Virus genome (UHGV): UHGV-1764535
Length of the DNA stretch: 15,194 nt
Direction: 5' to 3' (one strand)
From: a virus
The notes under the pieces were generated by a model. That model made no database searches. It was not told where the DNA came from and was given only the letters and a program-made list of their open reading frames with translations. Both the position numbers and the translations under genes were made by a program. Each line of letters opens with the position of its first letter. The stretch's first letter is position 1. Below are positions 7,461 to 15,194 of this stretch, one piece after another.

Positions 7461-8879
7461 ATGCCGATTCAGCAACTTCCGCTTATGAAAGGTGTCGGCA
7501 AAGACTTTCGAAACGCCGACTATATCGACTATCTGCCAGCGAATATGTTGGCTACACCCAAAGAAATCCTGAACAGCAGCGGATATCTTCGCTCATTCCC
7601 GGGCATTGCCAAACGTTCTGATGTGAACGGCGTATCGCGCGGAGTCGAGTACAACATGGCGCAGAATGCTGTATATCGCGTGTGTGGCGGCAAGCTGTAT
7701 AAGGGCGAAAGCGAGGTCGGTGATGTTGCCGGAAGTGGTCGCGTATCAATGGCACACGGTAGGACATCACAGGCAGTAGGCGTTAATGGTAAACTGGTCG
7801 AGTATCGCTATGATGGCACGGTTAAAACAGTCTCAAACTGGCCTGCAGACAGCGGATTCACGCAGTATGAGTTAGGCGCAGTCCGCGACATTACGCGCTT
7901 ACGTGGGCGTTATGCGTGGTCAAAAGACGGAACTGATTCATGGTTTATCACTGACCTTGAAGACGAATCGCATCCTGACCGCTACAGCGCACAATATCGC
8001 GCAGAATCGCAGCCGGACGGCATCATCGGCATCGGAACATGGCGAGACTTCATCGTCTGCTTTGGTTCATCGACGATTGAATATTTTTCCCTGACAGGCG
8101 CAACTACCGTTGGTGCTGCTTTGTATGTCGCGCAGCCATCGCTGATGGTGCAAAAAGGCATCGCCGGAACTTACTGCAAAACGCCGTTTGCTGATTCCTA
8201 TGCTTTCATCAGCAATCCGGCAACAGGTGCGCCGTCTGTGTATATCATCGGCTCTGGTCAGGTATCACCAATCGCCAGCGCGAGCATTGAGAAAATACTA
8301 CGCTCCTACACTGCTGATGAACTGGCTGATGGCGTGATGGAGTCTCTGCGATTTGATGCGCATGAGTTGCTGATTATCCATCTTCCGCGCCACGTACTCG
8401 TGTACGACGCATCTTCAAGCGCCAATGGTCCGCAATGGTGCGTACTGAAAACAGGCCTGTACGACGATGTGTACCGCGCTATCGACTTCATTTACGAAGG
8501 CAATCAGATAACGTGCGGAGATAAGCTGGAATCGGTTATCGGCAAATTGCAGTTCGATATCAGCAGCCAGTATGGGCTACAGCAAGAACACCTGTTGTTT
8601 ACACCACTCTTCAAAGCTGAGAACGCCAGATGTTTTGATCTGGAAGTTGAATCATCGACTGGTGTCGCTCAGTACGCTGACCGCCTTTTTCTCTCTGCAA
8701 CCACTGACGGCATCAATTACGGTCGTGAACAGATGATTGAGCAGAATGAACCGTTCGTTTACGACAAACGCGTTTTGTGGAAGCGAGTAGGGCGCATCAG
8801 GAAAAATGTCGGCTTCAAATTGCGCGTTATCACGAAGTCACCTGTCACTCTGTCTGGTTGCCAGATAAGGATTGAGTAA
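7461..8879 (+). CDS. Tail accessory factor / tail hub (P22 gp10-like), 472 aa
   Basis: Same length as P22 gp10 and near-identical N-terminal stretch to my recollection of it ([45 protein letters not shown]...). GAGGTG RBS. Confidence 0.9.
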
Positions 8880-9580
8880 TGGCTGATTCGAATCTCAATG
8901 AGCCGGTAACAATTCAGGCTACACGACTCGATACATCAATCCTTCCACGCAATATATTCAGCCAGTCTTACCTGCTGTATGTCATTAATCAGGGGGCTGA
9001 TGTCGGCGCAATTGCCGGGAAGGCAAATCAGGCTGGTCAGGGCGCTTACGATGCTCAGGTGAAAAACGATGAACAGGATGTCGAACTGGCTGACCACGAT
9101 GCAAGAATCTCCGCAAACACAAAAGCGATAAATCTCCTTGAGGTCAGGTTAACAACTGCCGAAGGGAAGATAGTCGTACTGCGTAGCGATGTTGATTACT
9201 TGCTGGATGAGGTTATCGATATTCAGGCGCATCTGGTCACTGTTGACCAAAGACTGGATGACGTAGAAAACGATGTCTCTGGCATTAAGAGTGATTACGT
9301 ATCGAAAACCGTAACCGAATTGCAGTCTCTTGAGTCACCGCTGGATGTAAAAACATCATATTCAGTTGATGGAATTCAGGTTGTTGGAGCAAGAAATACC
9401 GGATGGACTGCAGCCACAGGTACGCCACTTCTTGGCTCATTCAACGCTAACCAGTCATACACTGTCGGCACTACGTACACACAATCCGAAGTCGCAGCTC
9501 TCGCTACAGGTTTGCAGCAGGCGCGGCAGCGTATTCTGGCGCTTGAAACGGCACTTAGATTACATGGGCTGATTGACTGA
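8879..9580 (+). CDS. Tail needle / plug protein (P22 gp26-like), 233 aa
   Basis: Same length as P22 gp26; conserved N-terminus ([63 protein letters not shown]) and C-terminus ([22 protein letters not shown]); heptad-rich middle consistent with a trimeric coiled coil. TAATG stop/start overlap with the upstream gene. Confidence 0.9.
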
Positions 9581-10037: not shown

Positions 10038-10730
10038 ATGTTATATGCATTTAAGCTGGGCAGAAAACTGCGCGGCGAGGAACCTTATTGCCCTGAAAAA
10101 GGCGGGAAAGGTGGCAGTTCTGATAAAAGTGCAAAGTATGCCGCAGAAGCTCAGAAGTATGCCGCAGACCTGCAAAATCAACAGTGGCAGACGATCATGA
10201 AAAACCTTGCTCCGTTCACGCCGCTTGCGGAGCAGTATGTTAACCAGCTTCAGAACCTTTCCAGTTTAGAAGGACAGGGTCAGGCACTTAATCAGTATTA
10301 CAACTCTCAGCAGTATAAAGACCTTGCAGGTCAGGCTCGTTACCAGAGTCTTGCTGCTGCGGAGGCGACGGGTGGACTTGGTTCGACAGCCACAAGCAAT
10401 CAACTGGCTACGATCGCGCCGACTCTCGGTCAGTCTTGGTTATCAAACCAGATGAGCAATTACAACAATCTGGCAAACGTTGGTCTTGGTGCTCTGCAAG
10501 GTCAGGCAAACGCCGGGCAGACGTACGCCAACAACATGAGCAGCATTGCACAGCAAAGCGCAGCTCTTGCCGCTGCTAATGCCAATAAACCATCAAGTCT
10601 TCAGACTGCAATTAGCGGTGGCACGTCTGGTGCGATTGCCGGTGCAGGTCTTGCCAGCCTTTTGGGAACATCAACGCCTTGGGGCGCTGGCATTGGTGCT
10701 GGTATCGGATTGCTTGGCTCGTTGTTTTAA
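10038..10730 (+). CDS. Ejection (E) protein 1, P22 gp7-position, 230 aa
   Basis: Position and size match P22 gp7 (about 229 aa). Q/A/N-rich low-complexity protein with a Gly/Ala-rich hydrophobic C-terminus (SGGTSGAIAGAGLASLLGTSTPWGAGIGAGIGLLGSLF). GGGAGA RBS. Confidence 0.7.
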   Translation: MLYAFKLGRKLRGEEPYCPEKGGKGGSSDKSAKYAAEAQKYAADLQNQQWQTIMKNLAPFTPLAEQYVNQLQNLSSLEGQGQALNQYYNSQQYKDLAGQARYQSLAAAEATGGLGSTATSNQLATIAPTLGQSWLSNQMSNYNNLANVGLGALQGQANAGQTYANNMSSIAQQSAALAAANANKPSSLQTAISGGTSGAIAGAGLASLLGTSTPWGAGIGAGIGLLGSLF

Positions 10731-10739
10731 GGGGTAATA

Positions 10740-12071
10740 ATGGCTACTTGGCAAGGATCAAATGGCGGATTGTTGGCTGGTATCGGCGGCGTCAACTCAA
10801 ACGCTCCGAGCGTAAATGACATCGGCAATACGCTTCAGCTTATCAGGCAGAACAATGATATTGAGCGTTCAGGCGCTAACAATGTTGGGCTGACTGCTTT
10901 GCAAGGCCTTTCAGGTATTGCGAGGGTGTTTCAGCAGGAAAAGCAGGCTCAGCGGCAGAAAGAATTTCAGCAGGCGTACGCTAATGCTTATGCGTCTGGT
11001 GATCGCGGTGCTTTGCGTCAGTTGGCCACTCAATATCCAGACCAGATTGAATCCGTTCGTAAAGGGATGGGATTCATTGATGAAGACCAGCGTAATTCTA
11101 TCGGCACCTTAGCGGCTGGCGCACGCCTTGCGTCATCGTCTCCAGAAGCAATGCAATCATGGCTGCAAAACAACGCCGGTGAGTTAGCTCGTGTTGGCGT
11201 TAATCCCCAGGACGTCGCTCAGATGTACCAACAGAACCCGCGGCAGTTCGGCGAATTTGTCGATCACTTGGGGATGAACAGTCTCGGACCCGAAAAATAC
11301 TTTGACCTACAGGATAAAATGCAGGGTCGCCAGGTTACCATGCGCGGTCAGGATCTGGATTCGCAAACCGCCGCTCGGAATCAGGCAATCACAATGCGCG
11401 GGCAAGATATCCAGGCGAATTTAGGTCAGCAGCGCATTAATCTGGACGCAGAAACAAACCGCATTAACAACGAAAATAAGCGCCTTGACCGGATGCTATT
11501 AGCAGAAACTAACGACCTGAAGCGCCAGGAAATACAGAGCCGCATAGCAGCCAACAACCAGAAGTTGCAGCAGAAGCAGCAAGAGCTAAATGATGGCTAC
11601 AAAGACGGCATCAACACCCTCACAACCAGCATGTTCACTCTGAACGATATCGTTAGTTCTCCTTCACTTAAGAGCATTACAGGCTTACGTGGAGTAATCC
11701 CCAACGTTCCAGGCTCACAGGCTGCAGACACTCAGGCACGACTTGATACCTTTAAATCCCAAGCATTCCTGACAGCGGTTCAGGCCATGCGAGGCATGGG
11801 CGCACTTTCTGATGCCGAGGGCAAAAAGCTCGACCAGGCTGTTGGTTCGCTGCAGAACTCGCAGAGCGAGGAGTCCTTTCGTCGCAACGCTGGCGTCATC
11901 CTGAACACGCTCAACCAGAAGCGTAATGAGGCGGTTGGTAAGTACGTTCAGCAAAACGGTATCAAGCGAGTGGAAGCGCCTCAGGCTTCTATAGATTACC
12001 TGAAGCAGCACCCCGAGCTGTCAATCGACTTCATTAATCGCTACGGATATCTTCCATCTTTGGGGCAGTAA
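10740..12071 (+). CDS. Ejection (E) protein 2, P22 gp20-position, 443 aa
   Basis: Syntenic position; size near P22 gp20; long charged helical regions and an internal repeat (VTMRGQDLD / ITMRGQDIQ). AAGGGG RBS. Confidence 0.7.
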   Translation: MATWQGSNGGLLAGIGGVNSNAPSVNDIGNTLQLIRQNNDIERSGANNVGLTALQGLSGIARVFQQEKQAQRQKEFQQAYANAYASGDRGALRQLATQYPDQIESVRKGMGFIDEDQRNSIGTLAAGARLASSSPEAMQSWLQNNAGELARVGVNPQDVAQMYQQNPRQFGEFVDHLGMNSLGPEKYFDLQDKMQGRQVTMRGQDLDSQTAARNQAITMRGQDIQANLGQQRINLDAETNRINNENKRLDRMLLAETNDLKRQEIQSRIAANNQKLQQKQQELNDGYKDGINTLTTSMFTLNDIVSSPSLKSITGLRGVIPNVPGSQAADTQARLDTFKSQAFLTAVQAMRGMGALSDAEGKKLDQAVGSLQNSQSEESFRRNAGVILNTLNQKRNEAVGKYVQQNGIKRVEAPQASIDYLKQHPELSIDFINRYGYLPSLGQ

Positions 12072-14807
12072 ATGGCTAATTACCGTGATTTGTTAGAGCA
12101 GGCTGGCGCACGTTACGGTGTGCCAGAAGGGTTGATGACTGCACTGGGTGCCAAGGAGTCTTCTTACAACCCTGCCGCAGTAAGCTCCGCCGGGGCTGTA
12201 GGATTGACTCAGGTCATGCCTGGGACATGGCGTGATATGGGTTATACCGATGAGCAAATGCAAAACCCCGAATATCAGGCTGACGCTGGCGCGCGCTATC
12301 TGGCAAAGATGTACCAGCAGTTTGGTAACTGGCGTGACGCTCTTCAGGCTTATCACGACGGTCCCGGCAACGTTATGAAGGCAAAGCGTGGTGAATATAC
12401 GCCAGGACCTGAAGGCCGCGGTTACGTTGATGATCGCTTTGCTCAATGGGCGGGTGACCCGGTGACAGACTCAACAGTCGAACAGCGCGCCACCTCTGCA
12501 AAGGTACACCCTCAGCAAGACCCTAACAACCCGTTTGCACAACTGGAAGTACAGTCATCCGAACAAGTATCGGCATCAGGTGTGCAGTCAGACCCAAATA
12601 ATCCATTTGCTCAGATTGAGCAGCAGGCAGCCAGTCAGCAGCCACCTCAACCCGTAAGTTCTGTCGCACCGAAACCTGTTCAGCAACAAACAGTTAATCA
12701 GGCCAATAATGAACCAGCACGTGAAGAACCATCATTGATGCAACAAGCTGGCGATTGGCTCACAGGTGGTCAAAGTGCAGGGCAAATTGCAGAGCAGGCT
12801 GGTCGTGGTCTGGTAAACATACCATTTGACGTATTGCAGGGTGGCGCAAGTCTGATTAATGCAATCAGTCAGGGGCTTGGGGGGCCAAAAGTATTGGATG
12901 ATGTTTATCGTCCAGTAGACAGACCGACAGACCCCTACGCGCAAGCTGGAGAGTCAATAGGCGGTTATCTTGTTCCTGGAGCAGGTGTAGCTGGAAACAT
13001 GGTCATTGGTTCTCTCGCTGACGCGGCGAATCAACGGGGTGATTTTGCCGAAAATGCCGCTATTAATGCCGGACTTAACATTGCTACGCATGGCCTGATA
13101 AATGGCGTTACCCGTGGTGTTCGTGGTGCATCAAATATAATTAGTGGCAATAAAACATCTGCACAGAGAGCGACCACTGCGCCAACAGAAACATCACCAT
13201 TCTCCGGTGATGCCGCTGCAGCAACAAATCCTGCGGTTCATGCCGCAGAGGCAAGAGTAGCACAAGGTGTACCAATGACTCCTGCGACGAGGAACCCAGA
13301 GGAAGTCGTTCGCACAGTAGCAGCACAAAAAAGGCCAAATCTCGCTTCATCGCTTGATGAACTAGATATCAATCCTCAGGCTGAAGTTCTGGAGTCTGCT
13401 GAAAGGCTTAATGTTGATTCATTACTCCCTTCACACTTTTCCGGGAACGAGCAATACAAGGCAGTTGAGCAAGCAATCAAGTCCCGTGCGGGTTCTGCTC
13501 TACAGGTGCAGGAAAATGAAGCAATCAGGCAGCTAGCACAGGGCGCGGGGGAGATAATTGATCGCGTTTCCGGTGCAAAAGATGCTCTTGGTATGAGCGA
13601 CAAGTTTATTGATACGGTCAATGGAAGAATGTCTGCGCTGATGAAACGAAGCGACCAGCTTTATCGCAATGTTGAAAAGGCGATGCCTGCAGGTGCAAAA
13701 ATTGATGCGCCATCAACAAGGTCAATGCTCAAACAGGTGGCAGAAGATCTTGGTGGGATGAAAAACCTTGACCCTATTGAAAAGAGAGTCTTTCGGGCAG
13801 TTAATCCAGGCAAGAACGGCGCATTAACTTATGCAAATCTCAATAAGCAACGACGACTTGTTGGTGATGCACTTCATAAGAATTCTGGACCATATAAAGA
13901 TGCTGATCGCGCTGCTTTATCGAGGCTTTACGGTTCGCTCGCCGATGATCAAAAGGCGGCGCTGTCAGAGACAAATGCATTACGTGATTTTGAAGTTGCT
14001 CAGAGGCTTGTTCAGATGCGAAAAAGCATGGAAGAGCAAATGATTAATCTAACTGGCAGAACGCTGAACGGTGATGTTTCTCGCAAAGCAACTACAGCAC
14101 TACAGGCAATGTCGAAAGGCGATGCCAAAGGATTTCGTGAATTGATGCAAAACACGCCGTCCAGGAAGCTAAGAACCGAGCTACTGGGAACAGGTCTTCG
14201 GGATATGCTTTCGAACGGAAAACGTGGCGCTGATTTTAATCCTGCAGGGTTTGCTGACTGGTATCAAAACATGTTAGCAAACGGGCAGATGCGCAATCTT
14301 GCCCGACATTTACCAAAAGAGACTATGTCAGGTCTGAACGATGTATATAAGGTCGCAAAGGCTATCAAAGACGCAAAATCTTACGAGATAACTACAGGAA
14401 GACTAAACGAGTTCGTCAAACGGTTTAATCGCGTCACTGCGGCAAATGAATTTGTTGCTAACCATGCCCAACGCATTGGCACTGCGGTTGGTTCAACTGT
14501 GTCAGGACCGTTCAGTGCAGTAGGTGCTGTTGCTGGGTCAGAAATTGGGGCAAAAGTCGCCAGCAAAATCAGGGCGATGGGCGGCGCTGCATCAATGGAA
14601 TCTGCAGAAAAGCTAATTAGCTCACCAGAATTCCAGAAAGCAGCAAGGCTGGCAGTAAAACAAGCACCAGAAAGCATCGTTGATACAACTGTAAGACGCT
14701 CTTCTGCTTGGCGCTCGTTTTACAACTCACTTCCAGAATCAGATAAGAAAACCATATCAAGGCTAGGCATCATGTACTGGATGAACAGTGATGATAACCA
14801 GAAGTAA
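12072..14807 (+). CDS. Ejection (E) protein 3 at the P22 gp16 position, 911 aa, with N-terminal SLT-family lytic transglycosylase domain
   Basis: ATG 12072 immediately follows the previous stop. Residues ~15-110 carry the SLT signature ([29 protein letters not shown] ... [30 protein letters not shown]; catalytic Glu in KES, AYxxG-like motif). Followed by a Q/P-rich linker with DPNNPFAQ(L/I)E repeats and a long C-terminal region. Confidence 0.8.
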
Positions 14808-14824
14808 CGGAAAGCCACGGATGG

Positions 14825-15088
14825 TTAGTTGCAGTCTTTTTTATATAAATCTCTGAGCGTATCAAAGACAATTTTCTTTACCATATCGGATTGTTGGTCT
14901 GCAATACGCTCTGCATCGTCAATGTAAACGGATGCAGAGCTTTGTTTAGCCAATGATTCTTCAATCGCTGCAATTATCTCTGAGTTCAGCGACCTGTTAT
15001 TCATCTTCGCTCGCTGTTTAATTTTCGCGTGGAGTTCATGCGGAAGTCTCAAGTGAAACTGCGCCTCGTCGTATTTGCTGTACATCAT
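14825..15088 (-). CDS. mnt: Mnt-like ribbon-helix-helix (Arc/MetJ family) repressor, ~87 aa
   Basis: Minus-strand ORF whose product (..YDEAQFHLRLPHELHAKIKQRAKMNNRSLNSEIIAAIEESLAK...YIDDAERIADQQSDMVKKIVFDTLRDLYKKDCN) matches P22 Mnt as I recall it (HFNFRMP..V..KLK.RA..NGRSMNSE...DAERLADEQSELVKKMVFDTLKDLYKK). Start taken at ATG 15086-15088 with GGTGAGG SD-like motif 6 nt upstream, which gives a Mnt-like length; the track's longer ORF starts at a TTG (15145). Confidence 0.8.
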   Translation of the reverse strand: MMYSKYDEAQFHLRLPHELHAKIKQRAKMNNRSLNSEIIAAIEESLAKQSSASVYIDDAERIADQQSDMVKKIVFDTLRDLYKKDCN

Positions 15089-15194
15089 CAATGCCTCACC
15101 AAATGGGTGGAATGGCATCGTAAAACCTACTGTACAAATCAACAATCGTGCCGTTTCTAGACTGGCCCCCTGAATCTCCAGACAACCAATATCA
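15089..15194. promoter_or_regulatory. Putative mnt promoter/operator region (possibly a divergent immI-type control region), truncated by the window end
   Basis: Non-coding sequence upstream of the mnt-like gene. Contains the imperfect palindrome CACCAAATGGGTGG (15097-15110) plus TGTACA and TCTAGA palindromes. No convincing sigma70 -35/-10 pair could be assigned by eye. Confidence 0.3.

Follow-up and report, generated by a model that had tools for sequence, protein, structure and literature searches.

A gp16-type ejection protein with a predicted lytic transglycosylase head in an Sf101-like, P22-like podophage

The gene at 12072..14807 (plus strand) of the window, that is, of the whole 15,194-nucleotide stretch of virus genome UHGV-1764535 analysed here, very probably encodes the gp16-type ejection protein of an Sf101-like, P22-like temperate podophage of Escherichia/Shigella, with an SLT (lytic transglycosylase) cassette that would open the murein at entry in an accessory capacity. 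The short N-terminal mini-domain of the P22 type appears to have been replaced here by a cassette of ~200 aa, which consists of a family-1 lytic transglycosylase and a flexible Q/P-rich tether.

Results

The gene and its place in the operon

The complete gene for this SLT-gp16 ejection (DNA transfer) protein starts with ATG, and the ORF list and translation give 911 aa, exactly as the sequence-only reading had it. That reading had also assigned the gene to the gp16 slot of a P22-like operon, and the synteny agrees: PHROG profiles order the genes as portal, scaffold, coat, gp4-type adaptor, gp10-type, needle, gp14-type, gp7-type and gp20-type, followed by 12072..14807. The gp7 – gp20 – gp16 order at the end of the virion-assembly operon, by which membership of the P22 gp16 type is judged, is therefore present. 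Both partner genes are on the plus strand, that of the gp7-type ejection protein at 10038..10730 (phrog_598, “DNA ejection”, E=1e-100) and that of the gp20-type protein at 10740..12071 (phrog_2534, E=4e-194); gp20 forms the periplasmic tube in P22. The TAA stop of the gp20-type gene immediately adjoins the ATG of the SLT-gp16 gene, and there is a GGGG run 6 nt upstream of this ATG. A scan of 11900-15194 for promoters and terminators revealed none above the shuffled expectation, and no convincing ribosome-binding site precedes Met223, the point at which an internal start could have given an SLT-less gp16.

The 911-aa protein as a whole matches two PHROG profiles, phrog_21143 (E=0) and phrog_770 (E=2e-161, aa 108-864); the latter is labelled “DNA transfer protein” and spans aa 1-609 of P22 gp16. 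This prototype of the third ejection proteins (609 aa; L002:11484-13313) thus occupies the same slot after gp7 and gp20 and shares the same profile. The estimate, made from the sequence alone, that the gene is about 300 codons longer than that of P22 gp16 is correct in its total, the excess being 302 residues, but only 168 of these come from the SLT domain and linker in place of the first 52 aa of P22 gp16, while the other ~134 are due to a longer C-terminal body of a different type.

The lytic transglycosylase head

On the evidence of both sequence and structural model, aa 1-125 (12072..12446, plus strand) are a family-1 lytic transglycosylase domain with a goose-type lysozyme-like fold, for which cleavage activity is predicted. 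The family-1 lytic transglycosylases cleave the MurNAc-GlcNAc bond non-hydrolytically and leave a 1,6-anhydroMurNAc product. An HMM search of the N-terminal region against SLT families, which had been proposed as a check on the signature seen there by eye, gave a match to Pfam SLT (PF01464) over aa 7-110 that is far beyond chance (E=3.3e-25, 88.4 bits against a cut-off of 21.3). Glu29 (codon 12156..12158, plus strand), the predicted catalytic acid within the KES motif, falls in ungapped alignments on the catalytic E478 of E. coli Slt70 and E37 of T7 gp16 (28% identity to T7 gp16 aa 10-139), so that the claimed signature is well founded. This glutamate is retained in all of the SLT-bearing homologues examined, including a divergent lineage in which the motif reads GE(R/K)S. 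The other signature motifs are present as GLTQ (aa 44-47, G-L-x-Q) and AYHDG (aa 93-97, A-Y-x-x-G), and all three (ES, GLxQ and AYxxG) are conserved across divergent homologues. The structure prediction that had likewise been proposed yields a confident, alpha-helical and lysozyme-like head (AF2 pLDDT about 92 for aa 1-110), with a Foldseek probability of 1.0 to each of MltE, MltD, MltF and Slt70. Family match, glutamate alignment, fold and synteny all agree with the earlier suggestion that the virion would carry its own murein-cutting activity, as an analogue of the N-terminal domain of T7 gp16.

Neither the sequence nor the hydropathy profile of the 911-aa protein shows an N-terminal hydrophobic signal sequence, in keeping with transport by the virion and not through Sec. 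This also bears on the idea that the SLT domain is a second endolysin, acting at the end of infection (lysis/egress) or in assembly instead of at entry, an idea that can appeal to the names “endolysin” and “lytic tail protein” of PHROG profiles matching the domain. We regard it as very unlikely, since the gene lies in the virion-assembly operon, in the gp16 slot, and is fused in frame to a gp16 body. The holin or spanin neighbours and the small soluble or SAR enzyme that mark phage endolysins are not found here, and Sf101 has a separate holin/endolysin/Rz-Rz1 cassette about 22 kb away.

Linker, twin motif and mosaic joint

The head is followed by a linker (aa 126-220; 12447..12731, plus strand) that is rich in Q (18%) and P (14%) and predicted to be disordered, with an AF2 pLDDT <50 over aa 164-237. 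It contains two copies of the peptide DPNNPFAQ, at aa 150-157 (12519..12542, plus strand) and aa 174-181 (12591..12614, plus strand), which are identical as peptides and differ at 7 of their 24 nt, all synonymously. TRF finds no tandem repeat in the DNA of the linker; the description of this segment as a Q/P-rich repeat linker is consequently right about its composition and about the twin motif, but the repetition exists at the peptide level only. The pair and its fixed 24-aa spacing are conserved in divergent homologues from Klebsiella, Shimwellia and Cronobacter.

SLT cassette and gp16 body meet at a mosaic joint near aa 203-206 (nt 12676-12723). Megablast places the boundaries, in gene coordinates, at nt 1-618 for the region shared with IME10, from nt 605 for that shared with epsilon34 and from nt 652 for HK620 and CUS-3. 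The SLT-less homologue P0002, whose N-terminus begins MMKVTANGKTF..., also marks the joint position between N-terminus and gp16 body.

The gp16 core and C-terminal body

Beyond the joint the protein becomes recognisably P22-like. The segment aa 221-353 (12732..13130, plus strand) is 81% identical to aa 53-189 of P22 gp16 (137 aligned positions, E=1e-67) and 74-82% identical to gp16 of many Salmonella P22-like phages. It consists of moderately hydrophobic helices, with hydropathy peaks at aa 247-265, 300-318 and 329-347, and its composition (G 18%, A 14%) is indeed that of the Gly/Ala-rich segment described from the sequence alone; what that description did not recognise is that this is actually the conserved gp16 core. 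Ahead of the core, P22 gp16 has a 52-aa N-terminus (the MKVTANGKTF... mini-domain) versus the 220 aa of SLT domain and linker here.

After the core comes a second linker (aa 354-431; 13131..13364, plus strand), which is A/T/S/P-rich, variable in length and apparently disordered (AF2 pLDDT 25-45); within it, at gene nt 1105, the copy in E. coli FDN-24 has an in-frame 33-nt duplication. The remainder is a C-terminal body (aa 432-911; 13365..14804, plus strand), modelled by AF2 as all-helical over aa 432-905. A helical C-terminal region of ~550 aa had been anticipated, and its helical character stands, but it is a gp16-family body and not a region of unknown function: in isolation it matches phrog_770 positions 243-651 (E=2e-64). 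Aligned directly by hhalign with P22 gp16 aa 190-609 it reaches a probability of 7%, and the Pfam and NCBIfam scans of the body gave no family match in the libraries used; homologues of the protein carry the precomputed tag PF26808. The C-terminal parts of P22 gp16 and of the window protein are in fact different sequence types with no BLAST similarity, which fits the identity of 22-26% reported among gp16 types (PMC10883804). Near the end of the body, aa 802-820 (14475..14531, plus strand) form a Gly/Ala/Val-rich, moderately hydrophobic segment (19-residue Kyte-Doolittle mean 1.18; low AF2 confidence) that is a candidate membrane-interacting element. Such hydrophobic segments are weak (Kyte-Doolittle about 1.2), so that the sequence gives no clear sign that the body inserts into a membrane. 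With a core 81% identical to that of P22 and a body within phrog_770, the protein is an ordinary gp16 to which a head has been added, and the view that it is the least conventional protein of the window, an unconventional module, has to be given up.

The same evidence bears on whether the protein might be an external tail fibre or tail-tip lysin instead of an internal ejection protein, as the label “lytic tail fiber protein” of phrog_21143 and of gp13 in RefSeq NC_027398 would have it. This is most improbable. The protein from which aa 221-353 differ so little, P22 gp16, is an experimentally established internal ejection protein; the Sf101 tailspike is a separate downstream gene (gp15); and the AF2 model is all-alpha plus disorder, with no beta-helix or fibre-like repeats, so that neither the architecture nor the tail-distal location of a fibre or tailspike is found. 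Moreover, PHROG labels have been wrongly propagated in this family: phrog_29864 (“transglycosylase”) and phrog_29117 (“head morphogenesis”) match the SLT-less P22 gp16.

Relatives and exchange of the cassette

The closest known relative is gp13 of Shigella phage Sf101 (YP_009153087; KJ832078, “transglycosylase”), also of 911 aa, with 99.5% amino acid and 99.2% nucleotide identity and the same operon position. Escherichia phage APC_JM3.2 has essentially the same 911-aa protein (99.2% amino acid identity), again in the same position. Sf101 is nevertheless not the phage of the window, since its needle has 212 aa versus 233 aa here. Prophage copies in E. coli are named “lytic transglycosylase domain-containing protein” by PGAP, and copies so named occur in many E. 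coli, Klebsiella, Serratia and Cronobacter genomes. The protein is thus already catalogued, as a large annotated family with its own PHROG family, phrog_21143, and the hope that it would prove a poorly characterised candidate does not survive its near-identity to Sf101 gp13.

There is a negligible likelihood that assembly or annotation has wrongly joined an SLT gene and a gp16 gene into one long ORF. PGAP does flag some prophage copies (those with +33 and +48 nt) as pseudogenes, but the +33 copy, in FDN-24, is an intact ORF of 922 aa whose extra length is the in-frame duplication described above. The uninterrupted ORF is also found in Sf101, in APC_JM3.2 and in 14 complete E. coli genomes, and many genera have SLT-gp16 fusions of 770-970 aa.

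The exact cassette is present in 70 of 5426 complete E. coli genomes, as against 1167 genomes that have a detectable gp7 homologue. Our census of heads, made with an SLT-HMM and a Pfam scan of nine proteins, found SLT-like heads in about a quarter (29/115) of the complete representatives among the 150 best family hits. Bodies 94-98% identical carry short, SLT-less N-termini (P0002-P0015), and other wall-degrading heads (LT_GEWL, Peptidase M15B) are found on proteins of the same fold. Conversely, the IME10-type 797-aa SLT-gp16 of E. coli prophages (P0114, a cluster of 1295) has the same cassette of SLT and twin motif joined to another gp16 core/body type (48% identity over 64% of the query). 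The nucleotide identity of the cassette is 97-99%, over gene nt 1-618 in IME10 and 1-899 in Dewey and Huey. Judging from these sequences, the SLT head and linker (about aa 1-203) are a swappable cassette.

More distantly, the lytic podophages IME_EC2, Sortsne, Lumpael, Skarpretter, C130_2, Kosakonia Kc237 and others have SLT-bearing “DNA transfer proteins” that share the overall architecture throughout, at 31-34% identity across 84-99% of the length; for C130_2 the predicted body fold is the same as well (E=1e-20). These are, however, virulent phages of other genera, and their proteins lack the DPNNPFAQ twin motif.

Comparison with T7 and P22

In T7, too, the third ejection protein, gp16 (1318 aa), begins with an SLT domain, and an extended non-globular segment (the “molecular tape”, aa 157-228) follows it, as the linker does here. 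The two proteins have only this N-terminal part in common: the ~1100-aa body of the T7 gp16-type internal virion protein D (phrog_342), with its core-stack and cytoplasmic-hub roles, has no homologous counterpart in the window protein. The T7 transglycosylase is needed for genome internalization when the peptidoglycan is highly cross-linked (PMC8954989). Another podophage route to a virion wall-degrading activity is that of SP6, K1E and K1-5, in which lysozyme domains reside in the gp15 homologues, at the gp15 position.

As for P22, its gp16 is packaged in the capsid, ejected on infection, membrane-associated and placed at the inner membrane (PMC10883804), and about 12 copies are injected (PMC8402733). 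Its virions are reported to owe a muralytic activity to gp4 (Moak and Molineux 2004, cited by PMC5380687). Gp4, a neck protein, differs from SLT-gp16 in identity, location and fold family, and the window phage has both, its gp4 homologue being 39% identical to that of P22. Since gp4 is reported to be muralytic in P22 and a homologue is kept here, the SLT domain probably adds to a pre-existing activity rather than being the sole one.

These same facts might suggest that the SLT head serves mainly to bind murein, as an anchor or spacer fixing the position of the channel, and that it has little or no turnover as an enzyme: P22 and many relatives work without an SLT domain, gp4 is the reported lysin, and the long tether that carries the head contains conserved docking-like motifs. 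We nonetheless consider this unlikely. Strict conservation of the catalytic glutamate and of the ES, GLxQ and AYxxG motifs extends to lineages of about 40% overall identity and to the GE(R/K)S lineage. This is the pattern expected of an active enzyme, and the homologous T7 motif has a measurable catalytic role (PMC8954989).

Proposed role

Our preferred reading is that of an ejection protein with a head predicted to be enzymatically active. By analogy with P22, about a dozen copies would be packaged in the capsid and, upon infection, would pass by way of the portal and tail channel to the periplasm. There the SLT head, as its homology to Slt70 and T7 gp16 suggests, would refold and cut MurNAc-GlcNAc by means of Glu29, locally widening the murein mesh, while the gp16 core and helical body, again on the P22 model, would complete the DNA conduit by contacting the gp20 periplasmic tube and the inner membrane. 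The disordered tether of ~95 residues may let a body anchored to the membrane or tube reach the murein layer. Considering that near-identical bodies exist without the head and that P22 has none, the SLT domain is most likely accessory and not essential: it would accelerate DNA entry, or make it possible, in certain states of the wall, and so be conditionally required as in T7. Its contribution could even be small or redundant, given gp4 and the P22-like phages that lack the domain.

It is possible, although we would put it no higher than a tentative proposal, that SLT domain and tether together are a self-contained, horizontally mobile “wall-breaching adaptor”, in which the twin DPNNPFAQ(I/L)ExQ peptides dock the enzyme at the murein crossing. 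Their partner might be, for example, the gp20 periplasmic tube, for which the T7 “molecular tape” offers an analogy, or a periplasmic protein of the host.

Discussion

The Sf101 paper treats ORF13 solely as an injection protein, and we found no published experiments (zymogram, virion proteomics) on this protein or on any P22-like SLT-gp16 in the literature covered, outside which lie Casjens and Thuman-Commike 2011, Iglesias et al. 2023 and the September 2026 P22 in situ cryo-EM preprint. A 2022 review describes the P22-like phages as being without a transglycosylase domain. On the sequence comparisons made here this statement is too broad, as a defined P22-like subset has a T7-style SLT head on its gp16. 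Misleading annotation is also exposed, both where an internal ejection protein is called a “lytic tail fiber protein” and where an SLT-less gp16 is called a “transglycosylase”.

The gp16 bodies that occur with and without the head at 94-98% identity offer a clean genetic system for studying virion-borne murein cleavage. Swaps between such near-isogenic bodies would directly test both how P22-like phages cross the peptidoglycan and whether the cassette allows hosts to be infected in a wider range of physiological states. The general picture of podophage ejection is unchanged by these findings; rather, a known principle, that of modular virion-associated lysins, is extended to a group of phages in which it had been overlooked.

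An N-terminal lytic transglycosylase domain on the third ejection protein

The third ejection protein of this P22-like late operon, SLT-gp16, is encoded at 12072..14807 (+) by an ORF that, from the ORF listing and its translation, begins with ATG and specifies 911 aa. The sequence-only reading had placed a lytic transglycosylase at its N-terminus and named an HMM search and a structure prediction as checks; both bear it out fully, as do the alignments and motifs. Residues 7-110 match the Pfam SLT family PF01464 (E=3.3e-25; 88 bits, where the curated cut-off is 21). A phmmer search of PDB sequences matched E. coli Slt70, MltC and MltE, and in an ungapped stretch of alignment Glu29 falls on Slt70 residue 478, whose role as catalytic acid is established. 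In a BLASTP alignment to the first 200 residues of T7 gp16, an internal virion protein (28% identity, E=4e-11), Glu29 sits on T7 Glu37, highlighted as catalytic (PMC8954989). The GLTQ and then AYHDG motifs follow Glu29 at the expected spacing. AlphaFold2 models residues 1-110 with pLDDT >90, and a Foldseek search pairs these residues, at probability 1.0, with MltE, MltD, MltF and Slt70. Sequence and hydropathy revealed no N-terminal hydrophobic signal sequence in SLT-gp16.

The genes 5' of SLT-gp16 are, by PHROG (P22 numbering), portal, scaffold, coat, gp4-type adaptor, gp10-type head closure, needle, gp14-type, gp7-type ('DNA ejection') and gp20-type ('released from the phage upon host infection'), and the late-operon gene order is identical in P22 and Shigella phage Sf101. 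No nucleotide separates the SLT-gp16 ATG from the TAA that ends the gene before it (10740..12071), and a GGGG run lies 6 nt 5' of the ATG; this arrangement suggests that the two genes are translationally coupled. Directly downstream lies a divergent 106-aa ORF (14825-15145 (-)), probably a P22-like immI region of the Mnt/Arc type; its counterpart is named 'partition protein ATPase' in Sf101 and 'Arc family DNA-binding protein' in E. coli FDN-24.

The gp16 body and its linker

The early estimate of some 300 codons more than P22 gp16 was correct (911 aa against 609 aa). The excess is 302 residues: the SLT domain and linker, which stand in place of P22's 52-aa N-terminus, account for 168, and a longer body type than P22's for the rest. 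Residues 221-353 are 81% identical to P22 gp16 53-189 (E=1e-67) and 74-82% identical to gp16 from numerous P22-like phages of Salmonella and E. coli; the Gly/Ala-rich segment that had been noticed there is present, but it is gp16 sequence. Nor is the helical C-terminal region of unknown function, as had been supposed: the profile phrog_770 'DNA transfer protein' spans residues 108-864 (E=2e-161) and P22 gp16 1-609 (E=2e-266), and the isolated fragment aa 432-911 matches profile positions 243-651 (E=2e-64). When the alignment of the body was compared directly with P22 gp16 aa 190-609, hhalign gave a probability of 7%, compatible with the 22-26% identity reported between gp16 types (PMC10883804). 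Judged by sequence relationship, the remainder of the protein behind the SLT head is a gp16.

Beyond the head, AlphaFold2 predicts a disordered linker (aa 144-237), a low-confidence helical core (aa 238-340), a second disordered linker (aa 341-431), a confident all-helical domain (aa 432-775, pLDDT about 88), a poorly predicted Gly/Ala-rich stretch (aa 775-840) and terminal helices (aa 841-905). BFVD matches to the C-terminal helical fold (for example the uncultured-phage proteins A0A6J5KPX8, A0A6J5LYR9 and A0A6J7WK44) carry other wall-degrading heads, Peptidase M15B and LT_GEWL, which suggests that the body serves generally as a carrier on which murein-degrading domains can be exchanged.

The Q/P-rich linker had been described as a repeat, which holds for the peptide but not for the DNA, where TRF detected no tandem repeat. 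DPNNPFAQ, extended to DPNNPFAQ(L/I)ExQ, occurs at aa 150-157 (12519-12542) and aa 174-181 (12591-12614); the two copies are identical as peptides and differ at 7 of 24 nt, all synonymous. The pair and its 24-residue spacing are kept in divergent Klebsiella, Shimwellia and Cronobacter cassettes while the flanking linker residues vary, and AlphaFold2 places short helices directly after each copy. They look like candidate short linear docking motifs. The 'molecular tape' of T7 gp16 (aa 157-228) binds gp15 (PMC8954989); by analogy one might speculate that the partner here is the gp20 tube. A second SLT-cassette type has another twin motif, GPWxxYQ, present twice N-terminal to its SLT.

Mosaicism and distribution of the SLT cassette

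Megablast matches to the gene, counted in nt from its ATG, end at different points: nt 1-618 are common to IME10 and phiKp_30 at 99%, nt 1-899 to the Lederbergvirus phages Dewey and Huey at 97%, and epsilon34, HK620 and CUS-3 share only nt 605/652-899. A large protein search, with inspection of the N-termini, found the same gp16 body (94-98% identical) behind a bare SLT cassette, as here, behind a P22-type N-terminus without SLT (MMKVTANGKTFTFPDGTS...) and behind a third type, also without SLT (MAKAWKDVIASPQYQ...); in more distant members, either MAGPWEKYQ... or a mini-domain, MDVxLPxG..., precedes the SLT. The joint between cassette and body lies at about aa 203-206, and the same cassette occurs fused to two different core types, P22-type and IME10-type.

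Searching with the body only gave 1013 clusters at 50% identity (E<=1e-3), 402 of them at E<=1e-30, and in the retrieved proteins of 680-1340 aa it is always at the C-terminal end. A local HMM census of the best 150 representatives found an SLT-like N-terminal domain in 29 of 115 complete proteins, among them a divergent lineage whose Glu is retained within GE(R/K)S and whose SLT identity Pfam confirms. The same end-to-end architecture recurs, at 31-34% identity, in virulent podophages such as IME_EC2, Sortsne, Lumpael and Skarpretter. One family representative (P0252, 1212 aa) has an ADP-ribosyltransferase exoenzyme domain (PF03496, aa 714-829, E=7e-9) between SLT head and C-terminal body, possibly a toxin or host-modifying module that is injected. 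This exact cassette is present in 70 of the 5426 complete E. coli genomes (67 of the 70 at >=99% identity), against 1167 with a detectable gp7 homologue; the head is thus a minority option, recurrent and recently spreading.

Prior records and annotation

The feature is real and was correctly read, but it is already annotated. The sequence-only reading had called the protein the least conventional in the window and the best candidate for a poorly characterised module of cell-envelope penetration; for the field it is ordinary. Sf101 gp13 is 99.2% (nt) and 99.5% (aa) identical and is labelled 'transglycosylase' in KJ832078 and 'lytic tail fiber protein' in RefSeq; the Escherichia phage APC_JM3.2 gene is 98.8% (nt) and 99.2% (aa) identical. 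Matches covering at least 80% of the gene occur in 14 complete E. coli genomes, where PGAP names the product 'lytic transglycosylase domain-containing protein' or 'transglycosylase SLT domain-containing protein'. E. coli prophages are ~96% identical to the whole window. Despite the 99% identity of the ejection genes, the needle (gp26-type) gene gives 212 aa in Sf101 (locus L001, 8401-9039) and 233 aa here (8879-9580), so that the window is an Sf101-like mosaic relative rather than Sf101 itself, probably an E. coli or Shigella prophage. In the Sf101 genome paper ORF11-13 figure simply as a variable 'DNA injection module', with the SLT unmentioned (PMC4159516), and our literature search, which covered part of the relevant literature, found no publication analysing SLT-bearing gp16 of P22-like phages. 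The generalisation in a 2022 review that P22-like phages are without this domain is too general.

Annotation has drifted in several ways. This internal ejection protein is labelled 'lytic tail fiber protein' by phrog_21143 as well as RefSeq. The 'transglycosylase' profile phrog_29864 matches aa 204-342, the gp16 core and not the SLT, and also aa 1-331 of the SLT-less P22 gp16 (L002:11484-13313), itself 'head morphogenesis' in RefSeq; through such drift the SLT-less gp16 of several Salmonella phages is named 'transglycosylase'. A precomputed Pfam tag, PF26808, is attached to many homologues and presumably models the gp16 core or body. In E. coli FDN-24 (L004, NZ_CP158147) an in-frame 33-nt duplication at gene nt 1105 (window ~13176), in the second disordered linker, leaves an intact 922-aa ORF, yet PGAP records the gene as an incomplete pseudogene. 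A +48 nt variant is present in a further group of E. coli strains from swine.

Proposed mode of action

With the domain identities, catalytic-residue alignment, fold, synteny and modular exchange observed here as a starting point, a mode of action may be outlined. P22 is reported to package about a dozen gp16 copies (PMC8402733), and a similar number of SLT-gp16 might be packaged. From P22 and T7 work, the protein would be ejected via the tail into the periplasm, where gp16 body and gp20 tube would act together at the inner membrane (PMC10883804). The SLT head would cut glycan strands locally and so let the conduit pass the murein, as proposed for the T7 gp16 N-terminal domain (PMC8954989), and the disordered tether, about 95 residues long, would allow it to reach the wall from a body fixed at tube or membrane. 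The Sf101 lysis genes are separate from the SLT-gp16 gene. Specific results contradict every one of the alternative readings: binding-only domain, lysis enzyme, external fibre and fusion artefact.

The head is probably an accessory, since P22 and near-identical bodies do without it, P22 virions are reported to contain a muralytic gp4 (as cited in PMC5380687) and a gp4 homologue is kept here at 39% identity. In T7 the benefit of the transglycosylase depends on the state of the wall (PMC8954989), and by analogy the same would probably hold here. The SLT-bearing gp16 corrects a literature generalisation on P22-like phages, and the natural pairs of gp16 with and without SLT are a convenient system in which to test how these phages cross the murein.
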